From contig JAFGFB010000292.1 in the NCBI GenBank assembly GCA_016931315.1, forward strand, positions 14,699 to 78,698: a stretch of DNA of 64,000 nucleotides, read 5' to 3'. Below the pieces are notes generated by a model. That model had not been told where the DNA came from. It ran no database searches and worked only from the letters and a program-made list of their open reading frames with translations. The translations under genes and the position numbers were made by a program. Shown here piece by piece: positions 6,001-55,661 of this stretch (positions are counted from its first letter, which is position 1; each line of letters opens with the position of its first letter). Origin of the DNA: Anaerolineae bacterium. Its GTDB lineage: Bacteria > Chloroflexota > Anaerolineae > B4-G1 > SLSP01.

Positions 6001-6142
6001 TCGTTGCCAGTGCCACAACTTGCTCACCCAATTGCAAGCGCCCTAATACGTGAAACGAAGATCGAGAGAGCGCAGCAATGCCCTCACCTAAAGCGCCTGG
6101 GTGATGCATCACCCATTCAAGTTCCCGTGCCTCAGCATTCAT
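1..6142 (-). CDS. hybrid sensor histidine kinase: multi-GAF + PAS + HisKA + HATPase_c + receiver (3' end runs off the left edge)
   Basis: Absent from the ORF track because no stop lies in the window. My reverse-strand translation from ATG 6142 (MNAEARELEW...) stays open to base 1, and no track ORF shares this frame. Two canonical GAFs (ELYYVGVFLVDDTGEWAVLRAGTGEAG; GVYYVGVFLIDDTGKWAVLRAGTGTAG). PAS-like NPVFYKDRTG...GVFNDMTSRK. Intact H-box FLANMSHELRTPLNSIIGF, N-box LLNLMGNASKFT, G-boxes DSGVGI and GGTGLGL, then receiver start LVLTVDDDAGVITLFRRYL. Confidence 0.9.
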   Translation of the reverse strand, partial: MNAEARELEWVMHHPGALGEGIAALSRSSFHVLGRLQLGEQVVALATKLLSCPVALFFTIDPGSNAVPSAAVPSAAGVMASHLQPCAAVGMALHDLAPLTVQVLSRCGISEHPLVLHGTRLADCVADLHLPADSRVALLAPVMAEGQLAALICAVHLGEESEYSREESGFSPLGLLLMDLLATRVSDALEANTVYQGLEKDYELLQQRYQAMSSMYEISLELARQQRDLQPMLESVGSRILRLLDTTGGGIWLWREAEQCLELVMSLQSGYAAKVGARAAPGEGLVGQAYAAKQLKVRNDYSQWEGRPTEFTDAPFRAAMAIPLLWQDQVIGVLAATDDREERTFSAYDQYLGQLLASQVIVFIQNAQLFSQTRQTLARTEALYRANRSVTSILSLEETLQTVVNGVAEALNADQVIVYTFNFTTEEITHAVWGGRLRRESRQAGYSPPSFAELQQGLSGWVIQNLQPAYSPKGFVDPREGSAAQERRRRNRTGAIIVAPLQYRGQLIGTMTAFNSLDAPDFSPDDVDLMVAMATQAAAAVANAQLFADVEQSLRRTQALYQVGRSVMLTQDLDEALREITARVAETLPANRVSLVTFDAEARQITHFARGGPGQAYLDPAISFETLWEGLSGWVAREVQPALSPKGKPDSRESAESQRHRLEHHCGAMIVAPVMYRGAVIGTLTAINLPEEPDFTASDLDLLVAMVNQAAAAIANAQLFQAAQRRTLLLGAGAEISRATHSILELDELLLQSVALIRERFELYYVGVFLVDDTGEWAVLRAGTGEAGQHMLASGHRLRVGGQSMIGACVASRQARIALDVGAEAVRFENPLLPATRSEMALPLVSRDEAIGAMTIQSEHPRAFSADDILLLQTMADQFATAIVNARLFSRARHAALDAESNQILLQSVINSIPNPVFYKDRTGAHRIVNQAFAEQVLGLPVEQILGQTMPELARQSLARQLLPEVGASPGDASPGDVSPIDPAVAQAQHDSDMRLIHEPGVQSFEAQIPYADGSAHTVLLSKSTVFDAQGTITGVVGVFNDMTSRKQLLATLEHRTQQLQTAADISRATSSMLQLEELLPRTVELIREQFGVYYVGVFLIDDTGKWAVLRAGTGTAGEQMLQAEHRLQIGGNSMVGAAMQDREARIAFDVGLEAVRFENPLLPETRSEIALPLISRGDVIGALTIQSRQPQAFSDSDILVLQTVADQIANAIANAWLFAEAQARFEELQRIQRDLTGAAWSKFARGHTVVGYAYESNRLVPLLETATAVMNDERQDATVMNDAVSHDAISENVGQVWQERETAAIGELARGEVVLQQDEHGAFVLAPITSPLGEPLGVLGVDAATSSNGSNAAETGAVSSHSVLGQEWSEDDLALIQAVREQIGMALENRLLFEQTTSVLTETTTLYEVGQQISEAHSDAEILRAAIEGISRRPEPDRIIAGLFEPLNDPAHLRIVDGWVREGQVVQAGSAYPLSYWQLIYAALESEGSYVCTDIEQEAGFSGEVRRMFRHLTVRGLAAFQLRVRGMPYGAILIYTHQPHEFTTEELRFYTTLSQNTSVALENQFLLETTRQEAERRALLNEVMSTASASLDPDNLVHDSVQLIAQRLGMPTLYWKVDRERIRPLAVYRFDGSAVFLEETEERFVPEDVPELTEAVVSRLDYRWKFSTTAGLWSPFEVYRAELDLEEALVLPVTIRDEVLGVLILGQQHNHPAIDENETAFFHNAAVNIGVALENAQLYQDAQETAEKLKEVDRLKSEFLANMSHELRTPLNSIIGFSRVILKGIDGPITDLQKTDLDAIYQSGRHLLELINEILDHSKIEAGKMEYAFEPTDLMEIIRGIMSTSIALVKDKPIELQQHVPETLPTIIADSRRIRQVLLNLMGNASKFTEQGFIALAASADDEAVTISVQDSGVGIPKERYGSVFAAFEQVDSSSSRRYGGTGLGLPVSKKFVEAHGGTIWFESELGAGSTFFVRLPIAGPPPEPPAEESSPGAKLSRTTSRTDVEESKGRLVLTVDDDAGVITLFRRYLGKQGYRVVGLTRGDRV
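3204..3245. repeat. three tandem copies of the palindromic element GGTGACGCGTCACC
   Basis: ggtgacacgtcacc gggtgacgcgtcaccc ggtgacgcacc. The middle copy is a perfect 16-nt palindrome. It is read in frame on the minus strand as GASPGDASPGDVSP inside the PAS-like segment of the hybrid kinase. Confidence 0.85.
5916..5948. repeat. 15-nt tandem repeat (2.2 units) inside the hybrid kinase
   Basis: gcggcgctgggtaca occurs twice, followed by gcg. It encodes AVPSAAVPSAA on the minus strand. Confidence 0.85.
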
Positions 6143-9100: not shown

Positions 9101-10728
9101 GTCTCCAACGCGGTGGCGACTTGATCGGTGACGCTACGAATCAGGGTCAGTTCCTCTTCTGTCCATACGCGATTGGGGTCGGAGAGGGTGAGCATACCGA
9201 TGGTTTGATCGCGGTATTGCATTGGCTCCATGATGGTGGTGGAGGCGGCGGCATGCGTGCCGGGGACGGCATGCGTGCCGGGGACGGCATGCGTGCCGAA
9301 AGATGCGGGTACCGGCAAAGGTAAAACCGGTTCAACCAGAACGCCATCATACTCATACGCCTGTACTTGCCGGCGGCTCAACACGCGCGCCCAGCCATCG
9401 CGGCGATAATCCTGCTGAATGAATTGGAGTTCCGCCAGGGTTCCCTGAGTTTGTTCAAGCAGCTGGGCATTGCGCAAAGCGACCGAGACCTGGTCGGCAA
9501 GCAACTGGAGGATTTCAATATCAGGCGCAGTGAAAGCGCGCACCTCGGTGCTCTGCACGTCCAAGACGCCTACAACGCGGTTCCCCACGTCAACGAGGGG
9601 CAAGGCTATCTCTGACCTGGTTTCTGGCAAATCGGGGTTATCGAACCAGACAGCATCGTCGCCAACATCGAGGGCAATACGGGGTTGCGCGGTGGCCGCC
9701 ACGGAGCCGACAAGCCCTTGTTGCCCTACGCGCAAACGATGGCCGCGCGCGAGCATCCGCTGCCCACCCTCCGATGAAGCCGCACGCAAGACGGCCCATT
9801 GCGCGGATTGATCAATCCAGAAGATGCCAGCGTGGTAGTAGCCAAACTGACGCGAGATGGCCTTGACGGTGGTTTCCAACAAGGTGGGCAGGTCTTGAAT
9901 GGTTACTGCCTCACGCGCAACCAGGGAGACTGCCTCAAGTTGCTGGTTACGGCGAGCGAGGGCGGCGGTGCGGGATTCGACCTGCTGCTCCAGGGTGGTC
10001 ACCAAATGGCGCAAGCGTCCACCCATATCGTTGAAGGCGCGTGCCAGGAAGCCAATCTCATCCGTGCGACGGCTCTCGATCTCAAAGGCCAAATCGCCAG
10101 CGCCCATGATTGCCGCCCCTTCGGTCAGTTCTTCCAGAGGCTTGAGCACTGCGCGCCGCATAAAGACCTGCAATAGAACGAGCAAGATCAACGCCAAAAC
10201 CAGGGTACCGGCGACCGCCAACCAGGGCAGCCATGGCGGATCAACGATTTGGCTAAAAGCGCCGACTACGCCATAGAGTTGCTGTCCAGAAATATCCCGG
10301 CGCGTCATGCGGCGAATGACGAGCTGCACATCGCCGTATTGTGGCACGGTGAGCTCTTGCACTTGGGTATCGGGGACATCGAACGCTACCAGCGTCTGCC
10401 CGACCATGCCCGGCGTGGAGTGCAGGATGATGGTCCCATCGCCCTGCACAAGGGCGGCAAATGCCAACTCAGGCTGACCGGAGATGCTATCCCGCAGGAA
10501 ACGATCCAAACCCGGGACATCGCGCACGGAGGCGACGAAGGGGGCAACCACGTCAATGTGCTGGCGCAGCTGTTGCGTAATCATGTGCCCTTTACCAAGG
10601 CGCGCCTCACGATATTGGTCACGAAACTCACCCCCTGCCAGAAACAACAGCGGCGTTAGCAGTAGCAATGGCAAGATGACGATGATCAGCACCATCTGCC
10701 AACGCAGGCTCAATCCTTTTCCACGCAT
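6178..10728 (-). CDS. S16: membrane HAMP + multi-GAF sensor protein with no recognisable output domain
   Basis: ATG 10728 has AAGGAG 7 nt upstream. The track ORF reaches GTG 10821 only by translating the tandem repeat as RVRLRVRL. Order: TM (VLIIVILPLLLL), periplasmic segment, TM, HAMP (AFNDMGGRLRHL), GAF (FGYYHAGIFWIDQSAQWAVLRAASSEGGQRMLARGHRLRVG...ETRSEIALPL), AW/GY module, then several more GAF-like repeats. It ends with the stub REQLIREIGDQIQAAPDVQSVLQTAARELGRALGTSRAVVRL. No H-box, GGDEF domain or HTH seen. Confidence 0.85.
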   Translation of the reverse strand: MRGKGLSLRWQMVLIIVILPLLLLTPLLFLAGGEFRDQYREARLGKGHMITQQLRQHIDVVAPFVASVRDVPGLDRFLRDSISGQPELAFAALVQGDGTIILHSTPGMVGQTLVAFDVPDTQVQELTVPQYGDVQLVIRRMTRRDISGQQLYGVVGAFSQIVDPPWLPWLAVAGTLVLALILLVLLQVFMRRAVLKPLEELTEGAAIMGAGDLAFEIESRRTDEIGFLARAFNDMGGRLRHLVTTLEQQVESRTAALARRNQQLEAVSLVAREAVTIQDLPTLLETTVKAISRQFGYYHAGIFWIDQSAQWAVLRAASSEGGQRMLARGHRLRVGQQGLVGSVAATAQPRIALDVGDDAVWFDNPDLPETRSEIALPLVDVGNRVVGVLDVQSTEVRAFTAPDIEILQLLADQVSVALRNAQLLEQTQGTLAELQFIQQDYRRDGWARVLSRRQVQAYEYDGVLVEPVLPLPVPASFGTHAVPGTHAVPGTHAAASTTIMEPMQYRDQTIGMLTLSDPNRVWTEEELTLIRSVTDQVATALETARLFEETQRTARQQALLNAVLQTAAMTLDPDQALEEIAGILARGLAMAVGVFTFRGAPTGAPGTTSAIAASQEVRLQAFVLPGGEKLLDPGIIYTLPADLQIFFHGLTEPELGKILPMGEVQTLTENYDLERVLYVPIRTATAQAGFLALIRQQQDVLLDPDTRTLARNLAGQVAVVLENLHLLEETQRRSAELQLLYEVSLRFGQVLDPEATEQLVVDQAQALLVADGAAFLRYSEPQAALHCLSVWGDLASYQGISFNPGEGLPGTALLERRVVQTEAYTTGIHTPGNPAAPVLGPALAVPLMAARGVIGVLLVARQRGALPFDAVASRLAELFAAQATVALENARLYQESARRARDLQQLYEAGLSMIGMREVEAVLNTGAEWAMRLLGVQRTRVFFWERNNALADMHAAFSGFSAADPRFAAPETLTPPRPDGVTAEVRATGRPVLINQLAADSRIASPLVDLGLVAQVAVPLRLGAEIVGVLFANSTTAGYFTEENVRLLEFLGSQLATSAQNALQFAQLQQTLGVVEIQSRYRDAVAQATAQLAERGTESMPTVLQLLGEVLETGAAQYCDLRSEGAGMYWEVGAHWTPTAANESPAASKWRLDSFPEWLPALRSHGLVRVDASRASAAEQQALEALDFRSLLLIAVPSDASAPNFLAFGDNLRERDWKPEELISVQTVAAALSSTLARERLFREVQTALAETEVLYEAGGSLNAAQTYVQILDVMRQYTALGGSAHVNAILLYDRPWTERQRPTNAMLAARWVTGAPGSNVVPNALATSPIDLSLLARGNTLALLEPYLQRDRTQVITDVEREVDEIAPAYDLFHNSLQGRTVVFTPLLVGGQAIGTFMAAYGTVTHLTEEEQRRLTTLTGQAAVAIQNIYQLEATASRARREQLIREIGDQIQAAPDVQSVLQTAARELGRALGTSRAVVRLGGVGAARRKKPTGELSPQSYAEADHESAADTEE
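9250..9298. repeat. 18-nt tandem repeat (2.7 units) in an S16 linker
   Basis: ggcatgcgtgccggggac occurs twice, followed by 13 nt of a third unit. It encodes GTHAVPGTHAVPGTHA on the minus strand. Confidence 0.9.
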
Positions 10729-10820: not shown

Positions 10821-11966
10821 CTACTCCGGGAAGGTGCCGCCAGAACTGGCGGTCACCAACAAATCAAATGACGGCAAGACTCCCCAATGGCGCGCAGCTG
10901 CCAGGTTAAGCGCCAAAATATTGCGCTCCGGGCGCGCGGGCAGAAGCACTGCGGGGTCGGTCCCTCTGGCAATTTTCAGCAACAGGTTCGCGACCGCCTT
11001 ACCCTGTTCGCCACCGGAAAGGACTAGCCCGGCAACAGCTCCGGCAGTTACGATGTCCTGCCACATGCCAAATACCGGCGCCGTTGAGTTTAGCAACGTC
11101 CAGCGCAACACTTCTTCTGGGGGAATCAGATTACCGGATGCATCACGCACGTGATCAGCCTTGCCCAGGATTACAAAATCCACAGTGTCAGATTCAGCCA
11201 CAAATGCCTGCCACTCATCCCAGTCATCTGTTTGGCGCCAAATGGGCAGCGCAGGATAAGGGGGGTCTTTGAGCAAGGTATCGAAAATCACTTCGGTGGA
11301 CATAGCGTCGGTCGAAGAAACGTCACCGAGTACCATAAATTTGGTTGAATTGGGGACCATGTTCACGGCAAGACGCGCCGTTTGAATAGGATATGGCAAT
11401 TCCAAAACGCCGGCGACATTGGCACGGCTTAAACCACTGGCTAACACATTGCCGCTGAAACTGCAGAACACGATACGCTGGTTGGGGTCAGGATAGGTCT
11501 GAACAATCTGCCGCGTGGCCTGATTTCCCACAGTAATTACGACCGTAGGTGAAAACGCCTGGCTCAGGGCAATCGCTTCGGATATCGCCGTTCGGTCTGG
11601 AGCCACTAAGGTCCCGATATCCGCAGGCAGCTGATACTCCTCTAAAAAGAGGGTCTCGCCAATCCGATATCCCCCACTGCCCACCAGAGTTTCAAGGATG
11701 CCGGTGCGCACCTGCAAAGCCCACACTGATGAGACATCACCGCCATAAATCATGAAGAGCCGCAATGTCTCCAAGCCGGTTTCGGGTGCAGCAGGGTCGC
11801 TGAGGACAGCGCTGGGGGCTACCTGGGTGCCGGGCGGCATGACGGGAGTGGGCAGACAGCCTCCCAACACCGCCAACAGCAACACAATGAGGAGCGCAGC
11901 CGTCCAGCATTTGCGCCATTTATGGCGGCGGCAGATTACCGTCCGGTATCCCAGTCGTGGGTTCAC
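10821..11966 (-). CDS. periplasmic solute-binding-like lipoprotein (ABC_sub_bind/BMP-type fold; family call tentative)
   Basis: GTG 11966 has GGAGG 6 nt upstream. Lipobox LLAVLGGC. Resembles the periplasmic domains of S10/S11 (VVITVGNQATRQIV...KFMVLGDVSS...GKAVANLLLKIARGTDPAVLLPARPERNILALNLAAARHWGV). Its stop overlaps GTG 10821 of the track ORF for S16. Confidence 0.75.
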   Translation of the reverse strand: MNPRLGYRTVICRRHKWRKCWTAALLIVLLLAVLGGCLPTPVMPPGTQVAPSAVLSDPAAPETGLETLRLFMIYGGDVSSVWALQVRTGILETLVGSGGYRIGETLFLEEYQLPADIGTLVAPDRTAISEAIALSQAFSPTVVITVGNQATRQIVQTYPDPNQRIVFCSFSGNVLASGLSRANVAGVLELPYPIQTARLAVNMVPNSTKFMVLGDVSSTDAMSTEVIFDTLLKDPPYPALPIWRQTDDWDEWQAFVAESDTVDFVILGKADHVRDASGNLIPPEEVLRWTLLNSTAPVFGMWQDIVTAGAVAGLVLSGGEQGKAVANLLLKIARGTDPAVLLPARPERNILALNLAAARHWGVLPSFDLLVTASSGGTFPE

Positions 11967-32297: not shown

Positions 32298-33314
32298 CTA
32301 GTCAGATGTTGCCGACTCCCAAATCGTGTTGGTATAGACTTCTTCGGGTTGGACAGGGCTTGCCAGCACGCCATAGCGCTGCAGCGTATCCACTACACGC
32401 AAGACATCAGCCCGATCCGTATATCCAATGGGACGAATATCGGAGCTCTTCACCAACAACGCAATCTCACGCATCATTGACAGTTGGTGCTCAAGAGTCT
32501 GCGTCCCGGTGACATCATATTTGAGCACGATATCGGCGGCTTCCTCAGGATTTGCCACCGCATATTCCCAACCCCGCAACGAAGCCCGCAGCATGCGCTC
32601 GCAGAGATCGGGATTCTGTTCCACCAAAGCCTTAGTCGTGAACAGCGTATCGCCGGGGAAATCCAGACCGTAATCCGCATAGTCAATGATGCTCAGCTCG
32701 TTGGCCGCCACACCGCTTTCCAGGACCACATGGTACTCGTTGTAAATCATCGCCGAAGCGACATCGAGATCCCCCGCGAGGAAAGCCTCCATACTAAAGC
32801 CCTGTGAAACCAGCTGATATTGATTATCAGCAATGGATTGTTGGGTCATAAGGGCGCGAAATTGCGCATCCCAACTCCCCAACCACACGCCCACACGCTT
32901 GCCCAGAAAATCGGTAGGGTCGTCAATTCCGGAGCTCTGAAATGCCAGCAACAATAAGCCATTCTGCTGTTGTATCTGCGCAATGCTGATAAGAGGTTGT
33001 CCCTCCTGCACGGCGGATGCCAAATCGGCAAGCATGTAGGTGCCGAAGTCCGCATTACCTCCGGCAACGGCGGTTGCGGGGGAAATGTCGGGACCCCCGG
33101 CGCGGATCGTGACATCCAGCCCCTCTTCGGCATACCAGCCCTTTTCCAAAGCTACATAGTAACCAGCGAACTGCGCTTGTGGGAACCACTGCAGTTGCAG
33201 GATGACCGACTGTGTCTCATCGGGCGTTTCTACAGGCTTGGCTGGAGTACACGCCGCCAACATTCCCACCGTTAACGCCAACAGCAAAACTCCGAAAGAT
33301 ATCTTGTGTCTCAT
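32298..33314 (-). CDS. NMT1/THI5-like (SsuA/TauA-type) periplasmic solute-binding lipoprotein
   Basis: Preferred start is ATG 33314, with GGAGGAG upstream. Lipobox LTVGMLAAC. Family-typical LQLQWFPQAQFAGYYVALEKGWYAEEGLDVTIRAGGP. No ABC permease or ATPase gene anywhere in the window. Confidence 0.85.
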   Translation of the reverse strand: MRHKISFGVLLLALTVGMLAACTPAKPVETPDETQSVILQLQWFPQAQFAGYYVALEKGWYAEEGLDVTIRAGGPDISPATAVAGGNADFGTYMLADLASAVQEGQPLISIAQIQQQNGLLLLAFQSSGIDDPTDFLGKRVGVWLGSWDAQFRALMTQQSIADNQYQLVSQGFSMEAFLAGDLDVASAMIYNEYHVVLESGVAANELSIIDYADYGLDFPGDTLFTTKALVEQNPDLCERMLRASLRGWEYAVANPEEAADIVLKYDVTGTQTLEHQLSMMREIALLVKSSDIRPIGYTDRADVLRVVDTLQRYGVLASPVQPEEVYTNTIWESATSD

Positions 33315-33426
33315 TTCCACTCCTCCACCCACACTATAGGTAATTGTCATTCCAACGTTAACTACTTCACAGAGCTTTCAAACTCGCCACTACCGTCCGG
33401 CAAACCGGCTTCAAGACCACTATTCG

Positions 33427-46792: not shown

Positions 46793-46815
46793 GTCAGGTA
46801 TAAACCGTCAGGTAT
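46793..46815 (-). promoter_or_regulatory. direct repeat ATACCTGAC x2 immediately after the kinase stop (function unknown)
   Basis: The minus strand reads TGATACCTGACGGTTTATACCTGACAAG. It sits in the only gap over 120 nt inside the signalling gene train (46683-46814). I could not fit a convincing -35/-10 pair. Confidence 0.3.
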
Positions 46816-49280
46816 CAACCTTCTTTGGTGCTGGCAATGGGAATAGAGAAAGTGAAGGTGCTTCCCTTTCCCAAATCACTATCTAACCAGAGCTGCCCGC
46901 CATGCAGCTCGACAAACTCCTTGCACAATGCCAGACCCACACCTACCCCAGATGGCGCCCCATCCGAAGGCGCAGCCTCAACAGAGCCATCCACACAACT
47001 CTCCCATTCCCGAAACGGCAGTCGCTCCGGCGGGCACACTTTCTCAAAACCGGCTAAAATTCGCTCACGATCTTTCGGATCAATCCCCACACCCGTATCC
47101 CGCACACTCACATACGCCATTTCATCATCAGACCACGCGCGGATGGCGATTTCACCCCGCTCCGTGAATTTAGCGGCATTGGTCAGCAAGTTAATCAACA
47201 CCTGCCGAATACGATCAGGGTCGCCCTGAACGGAGGCCAGGTCTTGTGCAATATCCTGTGTCAACTGCACATCCTTACCTCGAACCAAAGCGCTGGCTGT
47301 CGGCAGTACACTTGTGATCACATCCCGCAAATTCACCACCTGAGATTTCAAATCCAGTAACCCCGCCTGGATCTCCGAAATCGCCAGGATATCATTGATC
47401 AAATCCAAAAGATGTTCACTGTTACCATGAATCCGCTGCACGTCAGCTGCTTGCTCTTCAGAAAGCGGGCCATCAAAACCCTTGAGCATCAGCCGCGAAA
47501 AGCCCAAAATGGAATTCAAAGGCCCCCGCAGTTCCTGCGACATATTCGCCAAAAAGCGCGCCTTGAAGGCCTCATTATCCTCAAATTGCTGCGCCGCCTG
47601 TCGTTCACGCTCATACGCACGAGCATTTACCAAAGCAATCGCCACCTGATTTGCCAAATGCTCCAACACCTTAACGTCATCCACCTGCAAGCCTTCATGC
47701 TCCGCGCTACGAACCGCCAGCACCCCCAATGCCTGCTGTTCCATGCGCATCGGTATCCCCACATGGGATAGAATTCGGCGATACCATTCAGGTACCTCTT
47801 CATCCAATAGCTCATTGATAACCTGAGAGTTGCCTTTGCGCAGGGCTTTCCCCACCACAGTGCCATCACCTGTAACCGCCACTTGGGGCCAGGAGGCAGC
47901 TTCCGGGCTAGCCGCATGCAGCCGCGCCTCAGCGCCGCCAGGATTCACCAGATACACCGCCACAGCAACGTAGGAGAAGCGCTCCCGAATACGCTCCGCT
48001 ACCCGCTCCAATAAAGCTTCCGGGTCGCGAATGGACGTGACTGCCTGACTGACTTCCAGGCTCGCTTCCAATTGAATCGCACGGCGCTGAATCTGGTAAT
48101 TAGCCTTCTGTAACAACTGCGTACGCGCAACGACTTTGGCCTCCAGGTCTTCATACAGCGATTTTAACTCGCCCGCCATCTGATTAAAGACGTAGGTAAG
48201 AATGCCAATTTCGTCCCGAGAGACCACGGGGACATGCTGCTCCATATTGCCTTCCGCCATTTCCAACGCCGATTCGGTCAGTCGAATCACAGGTCGGGTA
48301 ATCTGGCGGATCACGAATGCGGAAATCACCGTAGTAAGCAACGCTACGGAGAGCAAGCCCCCTATCAAGGTAGCGGCGATGAGCTCAGTGGACGCCAAAA
48401 CCTCCCGTTGTTCCTGCTCAACCAATATTCCAACATCCAACTCCGAAAGTGGGAAATAGGCCCCCACAACGGGAGTGCTTGTTGCATTACTGTACCAGGC
48501 GCTTGAGGGACTCTGGTCTGCCAGCGTCATACAGGCGCCCTTTGGCAATACCGATGAAGTGCTTTGAGAATCAGCCGTCAGCCAGACCCGTCCGTCGCGA
48601 ACCAGGTAAACGTTTGGTCCAGTATTCCCCATCATCAAATCATGTTGCAGGTTCTGCATCAACACCACAGGATCAAAACACAGCACCAAAGTCTCGGCAT
48701 CAGCGACGCCGGGGAAAACAATGGGAACGGAGGATGGTGCAGCAGCCGAGACGCTAGCTGCGCGCGTTTCCGCTAAAGGCTGCTCACAAGGCAAAGTCGC
48801 CTGTGGCGCCGGCAACGCACACTCCCCCCAAACCTGCTGTGACCTTCCCCGCAACCAGACGACACCATGCAATTCAGGAATCTTACCCTGCACCGCAACC
48901 CAAAGAGCGCCCTCATCTGCATCTTCAGCTAGCGCCGCTGCTTCCGGAATCGCTTCAACCACCGCACGGAACAGGTCAGCGCGATCCAACAACCAGGATT
49001 CCAAATTTTCGGCTTTTAAGGTCGCCATCAGTTGCAGTTTACTCGTGGCTTCAACCTGCAAGTTGCTACGATTCTGCACCACAACATACCATCCAATTAA
49101 AGCAAAAGGCATGATGGTCAGCGCCAAAAAAGCCGTCAGGAGCGTACGCCCCAGCCCGCCGCGCATACCCGTAGTTGGCAGGGTTCGCGCATTGGCTGAA
49201 GCAGCTGCCGCCTGAGATGGTAACGCCGTCGAAGGCGGGGATGCTTGCGGCGACCTTAACGCCTTTACTCCGGTTCCCAT
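46815..49280 (-). CDS. sensor histidine-kinase homolog (TM + periplasmic + HAMP + GAF + HisKA + HATPase_c) with Gln in place of the H-box His
   Basis: H-box region FLANMSQELRGPLNSILGF; the Gln codon CAG is at 47535-47537. The hybrid kinase has FLANMSHELRTPLNSIIGF. N-box LINLLTNAAKFT, G1 RDTGVGI, and G2 GVGVGLALCKEFV after an insertion of ~30 aa. HAMP VFNQMAGELKSL. The start is uncertain: ATG 49280 is only 2 nt after GGAGG, and the alternative is ATG 49166. Confidence 0.88.
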   Translation of the reverse strand: MGTGVKALRSPQASPPSTALPSQAAAASANARTLPTTGMRGGLGRTLLTAFLALTIMPFALIGWYVVVQNRSNLQVEATSKLQLMATLKAENLESWLLDRADLFRAVVEAIPEAAALAEDADEGALWVAVQGKIPELHGVVWLRGRSQQVWGECALPAPQATLPCEQPLAETRAASVSAAAPSSVPIVFPGVADAETLVLCFDPVVLMQNLQHDLMMGNTGPNVYLVRDGRVWLTADSQSTSSVLPKGACMTLADQSPSSAWYSNATSTPVVGAYFPLSELDVGILVEQEQREVLASTELIAATLIGGLLSVALLTTVISAFVIRQITRPVIRLTESALEMAEGNMEQHVPVVSRDEIGILTYVFNQMAGELKSLYEDLEAKVVARTQLLQKANYQIQRRAIQLEASLEVSQAVTSIRDPEALLERVAERIRERFSYVAVAVYLVNPGGAEARLHAASPEAASWPQVAVTGDGTVVGKALRKGNSQVINELLDEEVPEWYRRILSHVGIPMRMEQQALGVLAVRSAEHEGLQVDDVKVLEHLANQVAIALVNARAYERERQAAQQFEDNEAFKARFLANMSQELRGPLNSILGFSRLMLKGFDGPLSEEQAADVQRIHGNSEHLLDLINDILAISEIQAGLLDLKSQVVNLRDVITSVLPTASALVRGKDVQLTQDIAQDLASVQGDPDRIRQVLINLLTNAAKFTERGEIAIRAWSDDEMAYVSVRDTGVGIDPKDRERILAGFEKVCPPERLPFREWESCVDGSVEAAPSDGAPSGVGVGLALCKEFVELHGGQLWLDSDLGKGSTFTFSIPIASTKEG

Positions 49281-49684
49281 ACCTCCTCGCCCGCAAGAAT
49301 GCGGCGAATCTGTTCAGGAAAACGATCGGGATCCAAAGGTTTACCAATAAAGCCGTCAAAACCCACCTGGCGTGCCCGTTCCACAAAAGGCTGAGCGATG
49401 TTGGCAGTTACCGCAACAATCGGCACATCCTTGATTTGCGGATGCGAGCGCAAAGACTCCAACGATTCAAAGCCATCCGCATCGGGGAGCATCAAATCCA
49501 TCAAAATGAGGTCAATTTCGCCCAGCGTCTCCGCAAATTCCAGCACCTTCCACCCAGAAGCTTTCCATTCGCATTTTTTGACCCCCAGGAAAGCCAATAA
49601 ACGCGTCATCAACAAGAAATTGTTAAAATTGTCCTCGACAATGAGAATCACCGCATCCCAAGGTTGTTTTGGCTTAGCCTTCAT
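49265..49684 (-). CDS. single-domain response regulator (CheY-like receiver)
   Basis: VILIVEDNFNNFLL...IDLILMDLMLPDADG...VPIVAVTANI...GFIGKPLD. The acidic pocket, phospho-acceptor Asp, Thr and Lys are all present. There is no output domain. ATG 49684 (the track uses GTG 49687) overlaps both neighbours. Confidence 0.9.
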   Translation of the reverse strand: MKAKPKQPWDAVILIVEDNFNNFLLMTRLLAFLGVKKCEWKASGWKVLEFAETLGEIDLILMDLMLPDADGFESLESLRSHPQIKDVPIVAVTANIAQPFVERARQVGFDGFIGKPLDPDRFPEQIRRILAGEEVWEPE

Positions 49685-50060
49685 CACGTCCCCCCCGTTG
49701 CAAAAAGCGCGCTACCTGCTCTGGCAACAAATCCACATCAATCGGCTTGGGAATATAGCCATCACAACCGGCTTCGATGCTCTTCTCACGATCGCCGTGC
49801 ATCACATTCGCCGTCATTGCCACAATGGGTATATTGCGCAACTCGGGAATATCACGCAAACGCCGCGTTAGCGTATAGCCATCCATCTCGGGCAAGTTCA
49901 TATCCATGAGGATCAAATCGGGGAGCTCACGCTGGGCCGCAGCAATTCCCTGGGCAGCATCAAAAGCTTCCACCACGATATAACCTTCTACCATCAAAAT
50001 GCGGCGCACCAGCAGCCGATTATCCGGATTGTCTTCCACATACAAAATCTTCGCGCCCAT
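49674..50060 (-). CDS. single-domain response regulator (CheY-like receiver), first gene of the train
   Basis: KILYVEDNPDNRLLV...PDLILMDMNLPEMDG...IPIVAMTANV...GYIPKPID. All receiver signature residues are present. GAGGGA lies 7 nt upstream of ATG 50060. Confidence 0.92.
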   Translation of the reverse strand: MGAKILYVEDNPDNRLLVRRILMVEGYIVVEAFDAAQGIAAAQRELPDLILMDMNLPEMDGYTLTRRLRDIPELRNIPIVAMTANVMHGDREKSIEAGCDGYIPKPIDVDLLPEQVARFLQRGGRDEG

Positions 50061-50130: not shown

Positions 50131-50228
50131 CGGAAAGCACCATAAAATACCATAACTATTGTGTTAAAAGCGTGTGACACTTACCAAAAACCGATTCCAA
50201 GACGGTTTGAATCTGAAATCTGCCCTTT

Positions 50229-50269
50229 GAGGGATTATGCGCGCGGCAATGCCGCGCGCATAATCCCTC
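50229..50269 (-). terminator. 41-nt perfect palindrome downstream of the molybdoenzyme large-subunit gene (probable terminator/insulator)
   Basis: gagggattatgcgcgcggca a tgccgcgcgcataatccctc has 20-nt arms and starts 20 nt after the stop at 50290. There is no clean U-run on the minus strand, so intrinsic termination is plausible but not certain. Confidence 0.55.
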
Positions 50270-50289
50270 ACTTCTTCTGAGAGCAGCCC

Positions 50290-52662
50290 TCAAGCCTTAC
50301 AGATCAGCTCTTCGCCCTCATGTGTTGCCAGATAGATCTTCTCTGCAGAAAGTGGCAAGTCATTAAAGCGCACACCCAGGGCGTTGTACAGCGCATTGGC
50401 GATCGCCGGTGCGGTCTGCACCATCACATGCTCACCAACCCCGCGGGCACCCCAGGGACCATCCTCCAACGGCGTCTCGACAATATCACCATGAATTTCG
50501 CGCGGCGCATCCAGTGAAGTGACAATCTTGTAATCCACAAAACTGGGGTTGCGTAATCGTCCCCGGTCATCGAAGAGCATACACTCGAAAGCCGAGCTCA
50601 ACCCGTGAACTGCACCGCCCTCAATTTGAGTCAACACCAGATCGGGATTGATAGCCTTTCCAACGTCGTAAGCACTGGCAATCTTGAGCACCTCGATCTG
50701 TCCAGTTTCCGTATCAACTTCCAGGTCCACAGCTTGTGCCCCCACCGTGTAGTGGACCACAGCACGTGCTCCCTGACCGGTCTCTGGATCAAGCCCAGTC
50801 ACATAAGTGGGCATGAATTTTCCACTGCCCACTATGGGACCGCCCTGCCAGCCCTCAAAGTTCTCATTAGGCAGGCCGTAGATTACCATCTTCTTGAGCG
50901 TTTGCTCACGTTCCGACTTGTACGAGATGACTACCCCATCCTTGATATCCAGGTCAGCAGGGTTTTCGTTCCAGTATTTGGCTACAATTTCCAAAATCTG
51001 CCCGCGTGCATGTTCCGCAGCAGCTTTCACCGCATTACCCATGGACCAGGTCACGCGACTGGCTACCGTTTGCCACTCATAGGGGCTGTACTTGGTATCC
51101 ACTGGGTTTGCCGAAACACGCACCCACTCGTAGGGGATACCCAAGGCTTCCGCCGCCATCTGCGCAGCCACCGTGAAGGCGCCTTGCCCAAGTTCCTGCC
51201 CGGAGACGTAGACATTAAGGGTCGCATCCTCATTGAAACGAACGATAGCCGAGCTGCCAGGATTGGGCGGCATGGCAGGGGCCTTCCACATAATCGCTAT
51301 TCCCTTACCCCGACGCTTATGCGGCGCTGAAGGCTTACTCTCGCGCCCCCATTCAATCGCCTCCTTGACCTTGTCGATACACTTGGGTAAATCAACCTCA
51401 GGCATCGTCATGCCGGTGAGGATGATGTCGCCTGAGCGCACGCAGTTTTGGCGCTTGAAATCCGCCGCGTCCATACCGATGGCTTCCGCCAAACGATCCA
51501 TGATCTGCTCCAACCCCCAATGAATCTCTGGCATCCCAAAGCCGCGCATCGCAGAACCAATGGGGTGGTTAGTGTAAACGCAATAGGAATCCCCCTTAAC
51601 GTTGGGGACATCATACGGACCGGTGCAGGAATAGCCAGCGGCGCGAGCGATATTCACACCATAATCATTGTAAGCGCCGCCGCCAAAGTAATACGCCAGA
51701 TCCATGGCCAACAGATTACCCGCCTCATCACAACCAATCTTGAATTTCGCTACCAGACTTTGGCGGACATTGGTAGCCACGAATTCTTCCTCACGAGTCA
51801 TGCGCACCTTAACGGGATGTCCGGGCACAGCCTTCGCCATCAACACCACATTAGCCTCAATCGAAATACCAGCCTTGCCGCCAAAGCCACCGCCAATGTA
51901 AGGCGAGATCACACGCATATTACCATGGGGAATACCGAGACTCTGCGCGAGGAGGTCGCGCTGCGCAAAAGGCGACTGCGATGCCGCCCACAAAGTCACC
52001 TGCCCATCAGCGTTCCACTGCGCTACAGCGATGTGCGTCTCGAGGGGAGCATGTTGAATCTGCGGCAGTGTGTACTGGTCCTCCACAACCGCCGCGCACT
52101 GCGCCCAAACCTCCTCAGATACCCCAGCATCACTCACATTGCCCTTTCGAAGCTTGAAATGCTCCGAGATGTTGGTCCCTGGCTTCGGAAAAATGAAGTT
52201 GACCACCTCGTATTTCCCCAAGTCGGGATGCAAGAGCGGCGCGTCGGGTTTCGCCCCCTCATAGGGATCGAAGACAGGTGGAAGCAGTTCATACTCCACC
52301 TCAACGAGCTTAGCCGCTTGCTCAGCAATCTCTTCACTAATCGACACCACGCCAGCTACAGATTCGCCCACATAGCGCACACGGTCATAGGCATAGATGT
52401 ACCGGTCTTTCAAGTACAGGCCCAGCAGCGTAGGGTTATCCTGTCCTGTCACCACCGCCTTAACCCCTGGAAGCGCCAAAGCCTTACTAACATCAATCTT
52501 TTTGATCAGGGCATGCGCCACTGGGCTATGAACAATCTTGCCATGAAGCAACGTTGGGCCAAAAGCCATATCATCCACATACTTCGCCGCGCCGGTGACT
52601 TTCTCGAATGCATCCACGCGCGGAACACTTTTACCGACGGGATTCGATGTCTGTTCTTTCAT
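50290..52662 (-). CDS. xanthine dehydrogenase/aldehyde oxidase family molybdopterin-binding large subunit
   Basis: 790 aa; GGAGGAA upstream of ATG 52662. N-terminus PRVDAFEKVTGAAKYVDD, followed by GSAMRGFGMPEIHWGLEQ and GVGEHVMVQTAPAIANALYNALG, typical of the family. It follows the FAD and 2Fe-2S subunit genes. Confidence 0.9.
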   Translation of the reverse strand: MKEQTSNPVGKSVPRVDAFEKVTGAAKYVDDMAFGPTLLHGKIVHSPVAHALIKKIDVSKALALPGVKAVVTGQDNPTLLGLYLKDRYIYAYDRVRYVGESVAGVVSISEEIAEQAAKLVEVEYELLPPVFDPYEGAKPDAPLLHPDLGKYEVVNFIFPKPGTNISEHFKLRKGNVSDAGVSEEVWAQCAAVVEDQYTLPQIQHAPLETHIAVAQWNADGQVTLWAASQSPFAQRDLLAQSLGIPHGNMRVISPYIGGGFGGKAGISIEANVVLMAKAVPGHPVKVRMTREEEFVATNVRQSLVAKFKIGCDEAGNLLAMDLAYYFGGGAYNDYGVNIARAAGYSCTGPYDVPNVKGDSYCVYTNHPIGSAMRGFGMPEIHWGLEQIMDRLAEAIGMDAADFKRQNCVRSGDIILTGMTMPEVDLPKCIDKVKEAIEWGRESKPSAPHKRRGKGIAIMWKAPAMPPNPGSSAIVRFNEDATLNVYVSGQELGQGAFTVAAQMAAEALGIPYEWVRVSANPVDTKYSPYEWQTVASRVTWSMGNAVKAAAEHARGQILEIVAKYWNENPADLDIKDGVVISYKSEREQTLKKMVIYGLPNENFEGWQGGPIVGSGKFMPTYVTGLDPETGQGARAVVHYTVGAQAVDLEVDTETGQIEVLKIASAYDVGKAINPDLVLTQIEGGAVHGLSSAFECMLFDDRGRLRNPSFVDYKIVTSLDAPREIHGDIVETPLEDGPWGARGVGEHVMVQTAPAIANALYNALGVRFNDLPLSAEKIYLATHEGEELICKA

Positions 52663-52758
52663 AATTTCCTCCAGATCATGGGAACTTACTGAAGGTCGCT
52701 GGTTACTAATCGGGCGATGCCTTTGTCACGGCGCATTTATAGCAACCAGCCCCAGCAA

Positions 52759-53226
52759 CTAGTCCCCAGCCTCCGCCACATCCAATACAGCATCCACAAT
52801 CCGTATATAGCCAGTGCAGCGACAGAGATTGCCTACCAGGGCTTCACGCACCTCTTGCTCCGTGGGATGGGGGTTGCGCTCCAGCAACGCCTTTGCCGAC
52901 ATCAACATGCCCGAAGTACAGAAACCACACTGGACTGCATTATGCTCAACAAAGGCTTTCTGCAACGGGTGCAAATCCCCCCCCTTGCTCAGCCCCTCCA
53001 CTGTCTCGATGCAATGCCCTTGTGCTTCTACCGCCAGCACCATACACGAATTGACTGGCGCCCCATCGAACAACACCGTACAGGCGCCACATTCACCGTT
53101 CTCGCATCCAATCTTTGTGCCAGTCAGTCCCAATTGCTCCCGCAACACCCGCAAAAGCGTATCTTGCGATTTGACAACAACAGGGTAGGTTTCACCGTTG
53201 ATGTTTAACGTAATTTCATGTAGCAT
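52759..53226 (-). CDS. (2Fe-2S)-binding small subunit of the molybdoenzyme
   Basis: Preferred start is ATG 53226 (MLHEITLNINGE), with GAGGAG upstream. Cys clusters CENGECGACTV and CGFCTSGM...CRCTGY. Confidence 0.9.
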   Translation of the reverse strand: MLHEITLNINGETYPVVVKSQDTLLRVLREQLGLTGTKIGCENGECGACTVLFDGAPVNSCMVLAVEAQGHCIETVEGLSKGGDLHPLQKAFVEHNAVQCGFCTSGMLMSAKALLERNPHPTEQEVREALVGNLCRCTGYIRIVDAVLDVAEAGD

Positions 53227-53302
53227 AGTTTGCTCCTCTAGTCCAGACTTCACCATGCATTATACGTGTCCGGAAAAGCCATTCTTCCGGTCGCATTGTG
53301 CC

Positions 53303-54160
53303 CTACGGCAATTTATCCAGCACACCCTCGATCGCGCGCCGTGCGATTCGGCTCACCATCGCCTTACGATACTCAGCACTGGCGCGAATATCATCAATCG
53401 GGCAACAGGCGTCAAAAGCACACTTAGTGGCATGCTCAATTGCTGCCTCATCATGTCCGGCATTAAGCGTGACCTCCGCCTCGGGCGCGCGAATCGGTGT
53501 GGGAGCCACAGCCCCCAGCGCCAGACGCCAGGCATAACCACCGTTATGAGGATACGCGAGCGCCGCCACACCCACAATCGCGAGATCGCCAGCCTTGCGG
53601 CGGCTCAACTTCACATAGGTTCCAACTGTACCTTCAGACGGAACGGGAATGCACACACCCACCAACAATTCGCCTTTCTGAAGCGCGGTTTTACGAGGCC
53701 CGAGAAAGAACTCAGCGATAGGCACGCGCCGCTCGCCAGCTGTACCACGAATGATGGCGATAGCCTCCAAAGCCAACAGCGCGGGCGCCGAATCCGCCGC
53801 GGGAGACGCGGTACAGAGATTTCCACCCAACGTAGCGCGGTTACGAACTTGTTCATTGCCCATCGCTGCCGCCGCCTGAGCCAACAAATTCCAACGCGGG
53901 CTGTTCACTAACGGATGGTGAACCAGATCAGCCATCCGTACTGCCGCACCCACAAGCAAGCCTTCTGGCGTCTCCACAATATCGCACAAGCCCGGCAAGC
54001 CCTTCACGTCCACGACCACATCCGGCTGCCAGTGCTCATCACGCACCATCGGGATCAAATCCGTTGCACCAGCCAGCGGCATGACCTTCTTGTCCGGCAA
54101 TGAGAGCAACCGGAATGCTTCCTCGAAGGTTTCTGGTTTGAAATAATCGAATGGTCGCAT
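53303..54160 (-). CDS. FAD-binding medium subunit of the molybdoenzyme (CoxM/XdhB-like)
   Basis: Preferred start is ATG 54160 (MRPFDYFKPETFEEA), with AAGGAG upstream. LAGATDLIP, ATLGGNLCTASPAADSAPALLAL and IRASAEYRKAM are typical of the FAD-binding subunit. Confidence 0.88.
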   Translation of the reverse strand: MRPFDYFKPETFEEAFRLLSLPDKKVMPLAGATDLIPMVRDEHWQPDVVVDVKGLPGLCDIVETPEGLLVGAAVRMADLVHHPLVNSPRWNLLAQAAAAMGNEQVRNRATLGGNLCTASPAADSAPALLALEAIAIIRGTAGERRVPIAEFFLGPRKTALQKGELLVGVCIPVPSEGTVGTYVKLSRRKAGDLAIVGVAALAYPHNGGYAWRLALGAVAPTPIRAPEAEVTLNAGHDEAAIEHATKCAFDACCPIDDIRASAEYRKAMVSRIARRAIEGVLDKLP

Positions 54161-54200
54161 AAAACACTCCTTTGATATGCACACGATAATAAAGACACCA

Positions 54201-54253
54201 CAAAAACTAAAGAGTGTTTTTCGTGAGCAAGTGACCTGCTCACGAAAAACACT
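54201..54253 (-). terminator. intrinsic-terminator-like hairpin after the permease gene
   Basis: On the minus strand: AGTGTTTTTCGTGAGCA ggtcact TGCTCACGAAAAACACT, a 17-bp perfect stem, followed by CTTTAGTTTTTG. It starts 20 nt after the stop at 54273. Confidence 0.6.
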
Positions 54254-54272
54254 TCCTATAGTTTTGCGGTGC

Positions 54273-55661
54273 TTAGAACTCGATGTTCTCGCGTTCCTTT
54301 ACACCAAACATCGAGGGCGGAAGAACAAGGAACAAAACGTTGAGAAGAATGCCCACGATAGCGGCAAACACAATCGCCGGAATCCCATCCGGGAACAGCA
54401 CCGGGACCTTGAACGGGAACAAACCGTTCGGCAACCCCAGGTTTCCACCAATGCCCAGTACCAGGATCACTGCGCCGATAGCGAGGTTCTTGGGATCGAA
54501 GAGGTTGACCTTCTCACTCTGAATCAGCGCAATACCCTGCTTCCCGATAACGCCGAACAGATAGATGGCCAACCCACCCGTTACAGCGACGGGGATTGTG
54601 TTCACGAGCGCGGCCAGTTTGCCAATGAAGCCCAGGAGCATCGCAATACCGCCAGCAGCCATCAACACCGCCACCGAATAGTTGCGCGTGATTGCCATCA
54701 ACGAGTTATTCTCACCGTAGTTGGTACCGGCACAGCCACCCAGGAAACCATTGATCGCGTCATTGCAACCATCCGCTACCAGGTTCAAGCCAATGAGCTT
54801 CTTGATTTCAAGAGGTTTACGCTTAAGATCCTTTGCCAGCTGGTCAATATAGAGGCTCATCTGATACAAATGCGCGGTGGATTCCGGGATCGTGGCAATA
54901 GCAATCAACGCGACACTAATCGCCATACCCCAGGCGCGCCCATCGCCAAAAGCCGGAAAGGTGAAATTGGGCATGCGCAGCCAGGCCGCCTCACCCACAG
55001 GCGTGAAATCCACGATGCCAAAAATGAGTGAGACGATGTAACCTGCCAAAGCGCCCAATAGAATGGGGAGCATACCCAACAGCCCTTTACCTTGCAGATA
55101 GACGGAGAAGACAATGGTAAGGATCAAGGTGATAAAGGCCACGCCCCAATGCGCCGAAGCCATGTTAAGCGCAGTGCCGGCGAGGGCGATACCGATGACA
55201 ATCGCAACACTGCCGGTAACGATGGGCGGCAAGACCTTATCCAGGCGCGCCTTACCAATCCGCTGAATCAGCAAGCCAAAGAGGATGTTAAACAAACCAG
55301 TGCAGAGAATGCCAATTTGTGCGATGCGTACCCCATCTGGACAATACACCATGGTGGGATCATTGAAGCAGTCTCCGGCATACTTCGACATCACTGTGAT
55401 AATGACCGTGATGTAGCTGAAGGAAGAGCCATAATACAGAGGGATCTGACGCTTGGCGACCAATAACGCAATGATCGTGCCCAGACCAGAGGCAAATAGC
55501 GTAACGCCAATGTCGAACTTGGTAAGAATGGCAACGAGCACAGTAGCAGGGAACATCGTCAGCACCTGCTGGAAGCCCAAGCTGAGCATGGGACCCCAGC
55601 CCGGGACATCTTGGGGCATGTACCCCATGATCGTCGAATTCGTATCCGGTTTCTTAGCCAT
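54273..55661 (-). CDS. NCS2-family nucleobase:cation symporter (xanthine/uracil permease type)
   Basis: 462 aa, about 12-14 hydrophobic helices. GFQQVLTMFPATVLV near the N-terminus and NYGENNSLMAITR are typical of uracil/xanthine permeases. AAGGAG upstream of ATG 55661. Confidence 0.85.
   Translation of the reverse strand: MAKKPDTNSTIMGYMPQDVPGWGPMLSLGFQQVLTMFPATVLVAILTKFDIGVTLFASGLGTIIALLVAKRQIPLYYGSSFSYITVIITVMSKYAGDCFNDPTMVYCPDGVRIAQIGILCTGLFNILFGLLIQRIGKARLDKVLPPIVTGSVAIVIGIALAGTALNMASAHWGVAFITLILTIVFSVYLQGKGLLGMLPILLGALAGYIVSLIFGIVDFTPVGEAAWLRMPNFTFPAFGDGRAWGMAISVALIAIATIPESTAHLYQMSLYIDQLAKDLKRKPLEIKKLIGLNLVADGCNDAINGFLGGCAGTNYGENNSLMAITRNYSVAVLMAAGGIAMLLGFIGKLAALVNTIPVAVTGGLAIYLFGVIGKQGIALIQSEKVNLFDPKNLAIGAVILVLGIGGNLGLPNGLFPFKVPVLFPDGIPAIVFAAIVGILLNVLFLVLPPSMFGVKERENIEF

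Follow-up and report, generated by a model that had tools for sequence, protein, structure and literature searches.

The stretch of DNA analyzed here (the window, 64,000 nucleotides (nt), positions 14,699-78,698 of contig JAFGFB010000292.1, assembly GCA_016931315.1) comes from an uncultured Anaerolineae bacterium of the phylum Chloroflexota. On its minus strand it carries a gene for a protein of 821 amino acids (aa) that resembles a sensor histidine kinase and has Gln at the position of the phospho-acceptor His. This protein, referred to below as the Gln kinase, is identical to NCBI MBN1922695.1 from an Anaerolineae metagenome-assembled genome (MAG). Its gene is the third in a long minus-strand train and has the following features, where DHp denotes the dimerization and histidine phosphotransfer domain, CA the catalytic and ATP-binding domain, and pLDDT the predicted local distance difference test score.

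46815-49280, minus strand: putative pseudo-histidine-kinase gene, 821 aa, with the order transmembrane segment, extracellular domain, transmembrane segment, HAMP, GAF, DHp (HisKA), CA (HATPase_c)
48162-48317, minus strand: HAMP domain, residues 322-373 (Pfam)
47631-48029, minus strand: GAF domain, residues 418-550 (Pfam; model pLDDT >90 here)
47361-47564, minus strand: HisKA/DHp domain, residues 573-640 (Pfam, E = 2.9e-16), including receiver-docking helix 1
47535-47537, minus strand: Gln582 codon CAG at the phospho-acceptor His position of the H-box (CTG on the plus strand)
46836-47225, minus strand: HATPase_c/CA domain, residues 686-815 (Pfam, E = 4e-25), with intact N, G1, F and G2 boxes
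46947-47045, minus strand: enlarged, variable ATP-lid segment from the F box to G2, residues 746-778 (alignment; pLDDT <50)

The HisKA-to-HATPase_c layout of class I kinases, which the original prediction had read from this gene, was recovered with 59.7 bits for PF00512 (cutoff 26.9) and 88.8 bits for PF02518 (cutoff 26.4). Translation of 47517-47555 on the minus strand gave the H-box as FLANMSQELRGPL. When the protein was aligned with PDB chains by phmmer, Gln582 fell on the phospho-acceptor His of HK853 (FIANISHELRTPL) and of GacS 7z8n (FLANMSHEIRTPL), in agreement with the predicted replacement of the acceptor by a CAG-encoded Gln. The acceptor His of class I kinases is missing from the 821-aa protein, with Gln582 in its place.

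The nucleotide-binding residues were all present, namely N701 of the N box, D728/G730/G732 of G1, F745 of the F box, and G780/G782 of G2. The N, G1 and G2 boxes had been described as intact, with an insertion of about 30 aa before G2; both statements held, the stretch from the F box to G2 (746-778) exceeding that of most family members by about 20-25 aa. The residue that follows the acceptor position (H+1) is Glu and is retained in the clade that shares the Gln (the Gln clade). In the Gln kinase the H-box continues Q-E-L-R-G, the H+4 residue is Gly, and the E/D-x-x-T/N phosphatase motif is absent. Because the class I domains and ATP boxes are present and the defining acceptor His has been lost, the protein should be filed, on its motifs, as a pseudo-histidine kinase and not as a kinase.

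An AlphaFold2 model computed with 48 homologues had a mean pLDDT of 78.3. From the N-terminus it showed a membrane helix, a mixed helix/strand extracellular domain, a long second helix running into HAMP, the GAF domain, two DHp helices and an alpha/beta CA domain. Foldseek placed class I histidine kinases (WalK, HK853, GacS, RetS and DivL) as the closest solved folds. The modeled fold is thus that of an ordinary class I kinase with a disordered ATP lid. In the extracellular domain, C154 and C201 (48678-48821, minus strand, residues 154-201) were invariant in the 48 aligned homologues together with W151/G152, and the invariant cysteines suggest a conserved disulfide in the sensor domain.

Conservation of Gln582 and selection on the gene

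Homologues were taken as the best 120 of 603 word-index matches (46-100% identity, all of the same architecture) and arranged on a simple neighbor-joining tree. The acceptor column held H in 102, R in 12, Q in 5 and G in 1. The five Gln clusters were the five closest relatives among the 120 (at least 80% identity). They formed a monophyletic group, surrounded in the tree by His-bearing orthologues (65-73% identity) with an otherwise identical H-box. These clusters contain 14 distinct full-length sequences, taken from JGI, ENA and Logan assemblies as well as NCBI MAGs; each of the 14 carries Gln and has an intact reading frame. Of four Gln-clade genes compared at the acceptor codon, three, including that of the window, have CAG and one has CAA; the sister genes carried CAT and CAC. 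One member of the Gln clade (P0244, OQA23018.1, "Chloroflexi bacterium ADurb.Bin360") has been automatically named "Histidine protein kinase DivJ", its missing His having been overlooked.

An error of sequencing or assembly at a single base was plausible beforehand, CAG being one transversion away from CAC and CAT. Nothing was found in favor of it, and it was ruled out by the 14 distinct sequences, their independent assemblies and the use of either CAG or CAA; the chance of such an error is negligible. The codon comparison showed a single H-to-Q event in the ancestor of a small Anaerolineae clade, followed by a synonymous change. An alignment of orthologues had been proposed as a check on the original prediction, and it gave Gln throughout the clade, closest orthologues that were not all His-bearing, and agreement among the independent assemblies.

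The His could also have been lost neutrally thanks to a second kinase in the operon, leaving a gene that is functionless or becoming a pseudogene. A second canonical kinase is indeed encoded in the operon, and His and the H+1 acid have been lost repeatedly in the family. Ratios of nonsynonymous to synonymous substitution rates (dN/dS) were calculated by the Nei-Gojobori method among four genes of the Gln clade. With dS of 0.86-1.20, dN/dS was 0.085-0.109, no different from the 0.102 between two His orthologues. The HisKA domain differed by 0-3.5 nonsynonymous as against 25-38 synonymous changes; dN/dS was about 0.01 for HAMP and 0.08-0.17 for the CA domain. For the four genes together, the synonymous tree length was at least 1.6 substitutions per site, and a neutral Gln codon would be expected to undergo about 4.3 amino-acid changes over the sampled tree, with a probability of about 0.014 for no change. 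These figures are approximate and their direction is clear: the Gln protein, its DHp surface and the Gln itself are under constraint. The intact frame in 14 of 14 sequences, a dN/dS of about 0.1 at near-saturated dS, the almost frozen DHp domain, the persistence of the Gln codon and the complete genes and motifs of the much older Arg lineages all stand against a drifting gene, which was already disfavored and which we regard as highly improbable. With Gln conserved in orthologues and the gene under purifying selection, the substitution is neither an error nor the mark of a pseudogene.

The changes in the kinase core that are specific to and fixed in the Gln clade were H582Q, S646, T656, V748 and C749 only, and H582Q was the sole one within the HisKA domain. 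Comparison of the kinase core with that of the His orthologues revealed no compensating new His in the Gln clade. Because the acceptor His is missing, established two-component chemistry would leave the protein no canonical autophosphorylation and no role as phosphodonor. The core deduction of the original prediction, that autophosphorylation at the canonical site is not possible, is upheld at the sequence level by the fixation of Gln in the clade, by the use of both Gln codons and by the strong constraint on the DHp domain.

Operon context and the terminal hybrid kinase

The rest of the train comprises the two genes upstream of the Gln kinase gene and the long series downstream of it.

49674-50060, minus strand: RR1, CheY-like single-domain receiver, first gene of the train (Pfam)
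49265-49687, minus strand: RR2, CheY-like single-domain receiver (Pfam), its stop overlapping the kinase start by 16 nt
6178-46682, minus strand: 18 co-directional, mostly overlapping genes for 16 GAF-domain proteins and 2 substrate-binding-protein-like proteins
32298-33350 and 10821-11966, minus strand: the substrate-binding-protein-like genes within the train (NMT1 and ABC_sub_bind, respectively)
1-6142, minus strand: terminal multi-GAF/PAS hybrid histidine kinase, cut by the window edge (full protein P0121)
845-847, minus strand: His codon of the canonical H-box FLANMSHELRTPL of the terminal hybrid kinase (translation)

Both receiver genes lie directly upstream of the kinase gene; RR1 and RR2 overlap by 14 nt, and RR2 and the kinase gene by 16 nt. 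The acidic pair, phospho-Asp, Thr and Lys of RR1 and RR2 were all kept in operons of the Gln, His, His-Ala and Arg types, and RR2 was almost identical between the Gln and His clades. Because the receivers are intact in the Gln, His and Arg operons, a phosphodonor is still expected. The 16 GAF-domain proteins are membrane-bound or soluble, with MASE11, HAMP, Cache or PBP inputs and one to seven GAF domains, and carry no recognized output domain. This arrangement, in which the kinase follows two CheY-like receivers and precedes sixteen output-less sensors, had been described correctly, the downstream block containing 18 genes once the two substrate-binding-protein-like genes are counted. No literature on such a GAF train was found, and a search for MASE11 literature gave nothing relevant to the operon.

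The gene order was stable. The succession of two receivers, kinase and GAF train was kept in every locus fetched, save one Arg-type locus with a single receiver, and the GAF train was found downstream of the orthologous kinase in loci L001, L003, L005-L009, L011 and L012. In all examined loci the kinase shared its operon with one or two intact receivers, and the hybrid kinase was intact in the orthologues found. The Gln kinase and the hybrid kinase apparently share one contig in relatives, where their longest-contig sizes match at 79590 (P0242/P0122) and 71682 (P0244/P0123). These matching sizes are part of what suggests that the two kinases are co-located in relatives.

The terminal hybrid kinase is a 2261-aa protein with two C-terminal receiver domains, its C-terminus being taken from the protein record. 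Its H-box is canonical, as had been predicted for the far end of the train, and the HELRTPL motif was conserved in all hybrid-kinase orthologues found (P0122-P0128). It also carries its own complete CA domain with all boxes. Judged by these motifs, it is the only intact phosphodonor in the operon. No HPt domain and no response regulator with an output domain was seen in the operon inside the window.

The presence of two kinase cores in one operon raises the alternative of a split kinase, in which the working CA domain of the Gln protein would phosphorylate in trans the His of a heterodimer partner, likeliest the terminal hybrid kinase. The two cores are 43% identical, and DHp helix 1 is nearly the same in both, FLANMS(Q/H)ELR(G/T)PLNSI(L/I)GFSR. 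The N, G1, F and G2 residues were invariant in 119 of 119 relatives covering the region, including old Arg lineages long without His, and the CA domain dN/dS given above fits a working domain. A precedent is the model proposed for a FasB/FasC heterodimer, in which His246 of FasC would receive phosphate from the FasB kinase domain (PMC12675982). Against a split kinase, the terminal hybrid kinase carries a complete CA domain of its own and so needs no donor, and no change of the DHp interface accompanied the loss of His. DivL, moreover, keeps all boxes without needing kinase activity (PMC4211667), so that box conservation is not decisive. We consider trans-phosphorylation of this kind unlikely, while keeping it as the main alternative.

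Several features were observed upstream of the train. Promoter-like hexamers lie at 50121-50093, upstream of RR1. Just upstream of them, between RR1 and a xanthine-dehydrogenase-like gene (50290-52662), is a perfect inverted repeat with a 20-bp stem (50228-50270; 13 G-C pairs, 3-nt loop), which may be a terminator of the upstream gene or an operator. The upstream neighbors (50290-55661) are shared with the close relatives L001, L007, L008 and L009 and form a molybdoenzyme set of the xanthine/aldehyde-dehydrogenase type (FAD-binding, 2Fe-2S and molybdenum cofactor subunits). A xanthine/uracil permease also lies upstream in three of these four loci, and more distant relatives have other upstream genes.

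The H-box across the train-leading kinase family

Departure from the canonical H-box was frequent among the 120 homologues. At H+1, Glu was found in 73, Ala in 33, Gly in 5, Asp in 4, Thr in 4 and His in 1. The H+1 acid was thus missing in 43 of the 120, with the replacements falling in several separate clades among His-bearing relatives, and the canonical H-[E/D] pair was present in only 59. The His itself was also lost to Arg (12/120) and to Gly (1/120). The Arg homologues were P0068, P0070, P0086, P0087, P0093, P0096, P0097, P0101, P0106, P0110, P0111, P0118, P0251, P0258 and P0260, and the Gly homologue was P0074. The Arg codons are CGT and CGC, one transition from CAT and CAC. In the Arg and Gly lineages the genes are complete, the ATP boxes intact and the operon the same (loci L005 and L011). 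On this comparison, the Arg replacement is an independent, old and long-lived loss of His, more diverse than the Gln clade, and represents at least one further loss.

A link between loss of His and loss of RR2 was considered and dropped. The Arg-type locus L005 (P0111) has a single receiver, with RR2 missing and a 148-nt spacer instead (9479-10001), but the Arg-type locus L011 has both receivers, and both are intact.

For contrast, 1.84 billion cluster representatives were searched, and the best 150 were examined. The next-nearest proteins in this search were mostly long multi-GAF kinases (1000-3000 aa) of the type that closes the operon, and their H-boxes were canonical, with HE in 129 of 142. 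The His-less proteins among them numbered four, all with Arg: three proteins of about 800 aa and one 439-aa fragment. Because these next-nearest multi-GAF kinases are overwhelmingly canonical, the non-canonical H-box is a trait of the train-leading kinase family. The His has been lost in 18 of 120 clusters, a rate well beyond the 0.9% given for HisKA domains in general (PMC12632262), the two samples being not strictly comparable. The family seems predisposed to losing the His: its operon holds a second canonical kinase, it never carries the phosphatase Thr/Asn, and it shows other losses of His or of the H+1 acid.

The same H-box data bear on a phosphatase-only sensor, which would have lost kinase activity and would dephosphorylate RR1~P, RR2~P or both in a signal-dependent manner. 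The conserved His is reported to be non-essential for HisKA phosphatase activity (PMC12632262), the Gln clade keeps the H+1 Glu, and the receivers are intact and adjacent, with RR2 overlapping the kinase gene. Against this, the Thr/Asn of the E/DxxT/N motif is required for HisKA phosphatase activity (PMC12963549) and is absent. H+4 is Gly in the Gln kinase, and among the 120 homologues it is Glu in 102, Gly in 17 and Asp in 1; by contrast, 134 of the 142 related multi-GAF kinases have Thr there. Because the Thr/Asn of the motif is missing, a phosphatase-only role is disfavored, and we judge it quite unlikely.

Non-canonical phosphorylation would be another use for the retained ATP pocket. The protein could autophosphorylate on another residue or act as a Ser/Thr-type kinase, as some GHKL-family kinases do, for example on proteins of the GAF train. 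The invariance of the pocket in a family in which only 59 of 120 members keep H-[E/D], and the enlarged and variable ATP lid, would agree with such chemistry. It is nevertheless very unlikely: no new His has appeared, the other changes in the core are S646, T656, V748 and C749 only, no sequence signature of a Ser/Thr-directed GHKL kinase was found, and both the fold and the best matches are those of ordinary class I histidine kinases.

A broader and rather speculative reading, which we hold to be improbable, concerns the family as a whole. The train-leading kinases may be in transition away from His phosphorylation and may spend ATP on a purpose other than their own phosphorylation, as parts of a giant multi-sensor assembly. 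The basis for this is the decay of the H-box beside an invariant ATP pocket, the lack of the phosphatase Thr/Asn in every member, and the canonical H-boxes of the related multi-GAF kinases. If this were true, the ATP could serve obligate trans-phosphorylation of the terminal kinase in a heteromer, or phosphorylation of, or nucleotide-gated assembly with, the sixteen GAF proteins. The 44-kb operon would then be one large multi-input signaling machine.

Proposed role and comparison with known systems

We favor the reading that the Gln kinase is a natural kinase-dead pseudo-histidine kinase that acts by contact on the receivers, on the hybrid kinase or on both, modulating their signaling, and we assign it a probability of roughly 55%. 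After the His had been lost, strong purifying selection continued to act on HAMP, GAF, the DHp helices and the residues of the CA domain that bind ATP. The Gln protein would have lost autophosphorylation as well as phosphotransfer through its own DHp domain, in keeping with a report that the His is not bypassable for phosphotransfer (PMC12632262). It would still dimerize, bind nucleotide and dock receiver domains. Phosphoryl groups would be supplied by the 2261-aa hybrid kinase at the far end of the operon, or by a kinase elsewhere in the genome, and the Gln kinase would modulate that flow with its own extracellular and GAF inputs. One means may be contact with the neighboring receivers RR1 and RR2, perhaps preferentially in their phosphorylated form. 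In such a complex the Gln could hydrogen-bond the receiver phospho-Asp, as has been proposed for Tyr550 of DivL. Alternatively or additionally, it may pair with the hybrid kinase, following the logic of DivL-DivK~P-CckA and RetS-GacS. The original prediction named several roles and chose none; among them, a scaffold or pseudokinase partner and trans-phosphorylation are both compatible with the data, whereas the phosphatase-only role is disfavored by the Gly at H+4.

Several points weigh against a kinase-dead contact partner. The proposed binding of the receivers and of the hybrid kinase is deduced solely from gene order and docking-helix conservation. The ATP pocket is conserved more strictly than a pure scaffold would need, which would suit trans-phosphorylation at least as well. 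No co-variation was detected at the loss of His, either in the receivers (helix 1 and active-site residues) or in the DHp domain, and therefore nothing marks a change of partner. Finally, with dS near or above 1 and therefore almost saturated, the dN/dS ratios are approximations.

HisKA proteins without the His form a recognized class, at 0.9% of HisKA domains (PMC12632262). The class is thus already known; what is new is a case in Chloroflexota, which extends the class and overturns nothing. The novelty is lowered because loss of His recurs in this family, the H+1 acid is often lost and the His-less class is recognized, three points that the original prediction did not contain. The combination is mildly unusual in that a textbook kinase-dead allele is fixed in nature beside nearly identical His-bearing sister orthologues. 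The recurrence of the loss in the family, as Arg and Gly, is also unusual, as is the setting at the start of a 44-kb operon whose GAF sensors lack outputs.

Few pseudo-histidine kinases have been studied (DivL, RetS-like cases, RocA and PsmA). The Gln clade provides a natural experiment, with sister species that have the same operon and nearly the same protein and have kept the His, and with other lineages that have moved to Arg. Selection preserved both the ATP pocket and the surface on which the DHp domain docks its partners once the His was gone, and this pattern points to a role that needs both but not phosphoryl-His. The Gln/His orthologue pair yields testable constructs and is a convenient handle for dissecting an uncharacterized operon of receivers, kinase, GAF proteins and hybrid kinase.

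Replacement of the acceptor His by Gln is routinely engineered as a kinase-dead allele, which abolishes autophosphorylation and keeps the fold. In comparison with such laboratory alleles, the one described here is natural and fixed, and is maintained by selection in several species.

By analogy, the Gln kinase would work most like DivL, yet it is not a member of the DivL family. DivL of Caulobacter crescentus (PDB 4q20) keeps all boxes but the His, senses DivK~P and controls the hybrid kinase CckA (PMC4211667). The two proteins share a class I DHp-CA core that has exchanged just the acceptor His for another residue and retains the surrounding H-box sequence as well as the N, G1, F and G2 boxes. 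Both are associated with a single-domain receiver and a hybrid kinase as known or candidate partners, and here all three kinds of component are encoded in one operon. Although 4q20 was among the sequence and fold matches, its E value of 7e-21 reflects a generic match of the kinase core and no orthology. Unlike DivL, the Gln kinase has Gln and not Tyr, a TM-HAMP-GAF input in place of cytoplasmic multi-PAS domains, and an Anaerolineae rather than an alphaproteobacterial host. Here the His was also lost recently and in a single small clade, the family being otherwise His-bearing. As for DivL-like binding of a phosphorylated receiver, what is present here is the gene-level cast of components.

RetS of Pseudomonas aeruginosa acts on the DHp domain of GacS, controlling a kinase through DHp contacts and not through its own phosphotransfer (PMC8498467). 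GacS (7z8n) was the best PDB sequence match to the core of the Gln kinase in phmmer, with RetS (6dk7/6dk8) close behind. The proposed control of one sensor kinase by another through DHp would be similar. RetS differs in keeping its His, in being a hybrid with two receivers and in its sensor domain, and retS and gacS do not lie in one operon. The Gln kinase has no receiver domain by Pfam, and so lacks the hybrid architecture of RetS.

FasB and FasC of group A Streptococcus are likewise two kinase-like proteins encoded in one operon and proposed to form a heterodimer (PMC12675982). In the Fas system, the protein with the dispensable kinase domain, FasC, is also the one that keeps the essential His, and the kinase subfamily is a different one. 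In the present operon, by contrast, the CA domain is conserved in the protein without the His and complete in the protein that has it.

PsmA of Streptomyces and RocA of group A Streptococcus are conserved kinase-like proteins without the acceptor His (PsmA being termed a histidine pseudokinase) that act through protein-protein contacts (PMC12963549; PMC7028121). Like PsmA, the Gln kinase lacks the D/ExxT/N phosphatase motif (PMC12963549). Unlike the Gln kinase, whose nucleotide-binding residues are intact, PsmA has an ATP lid reported to look incompatible with ATP, and it acts on the polarisome and not within a two-component operon (PMC12963549).

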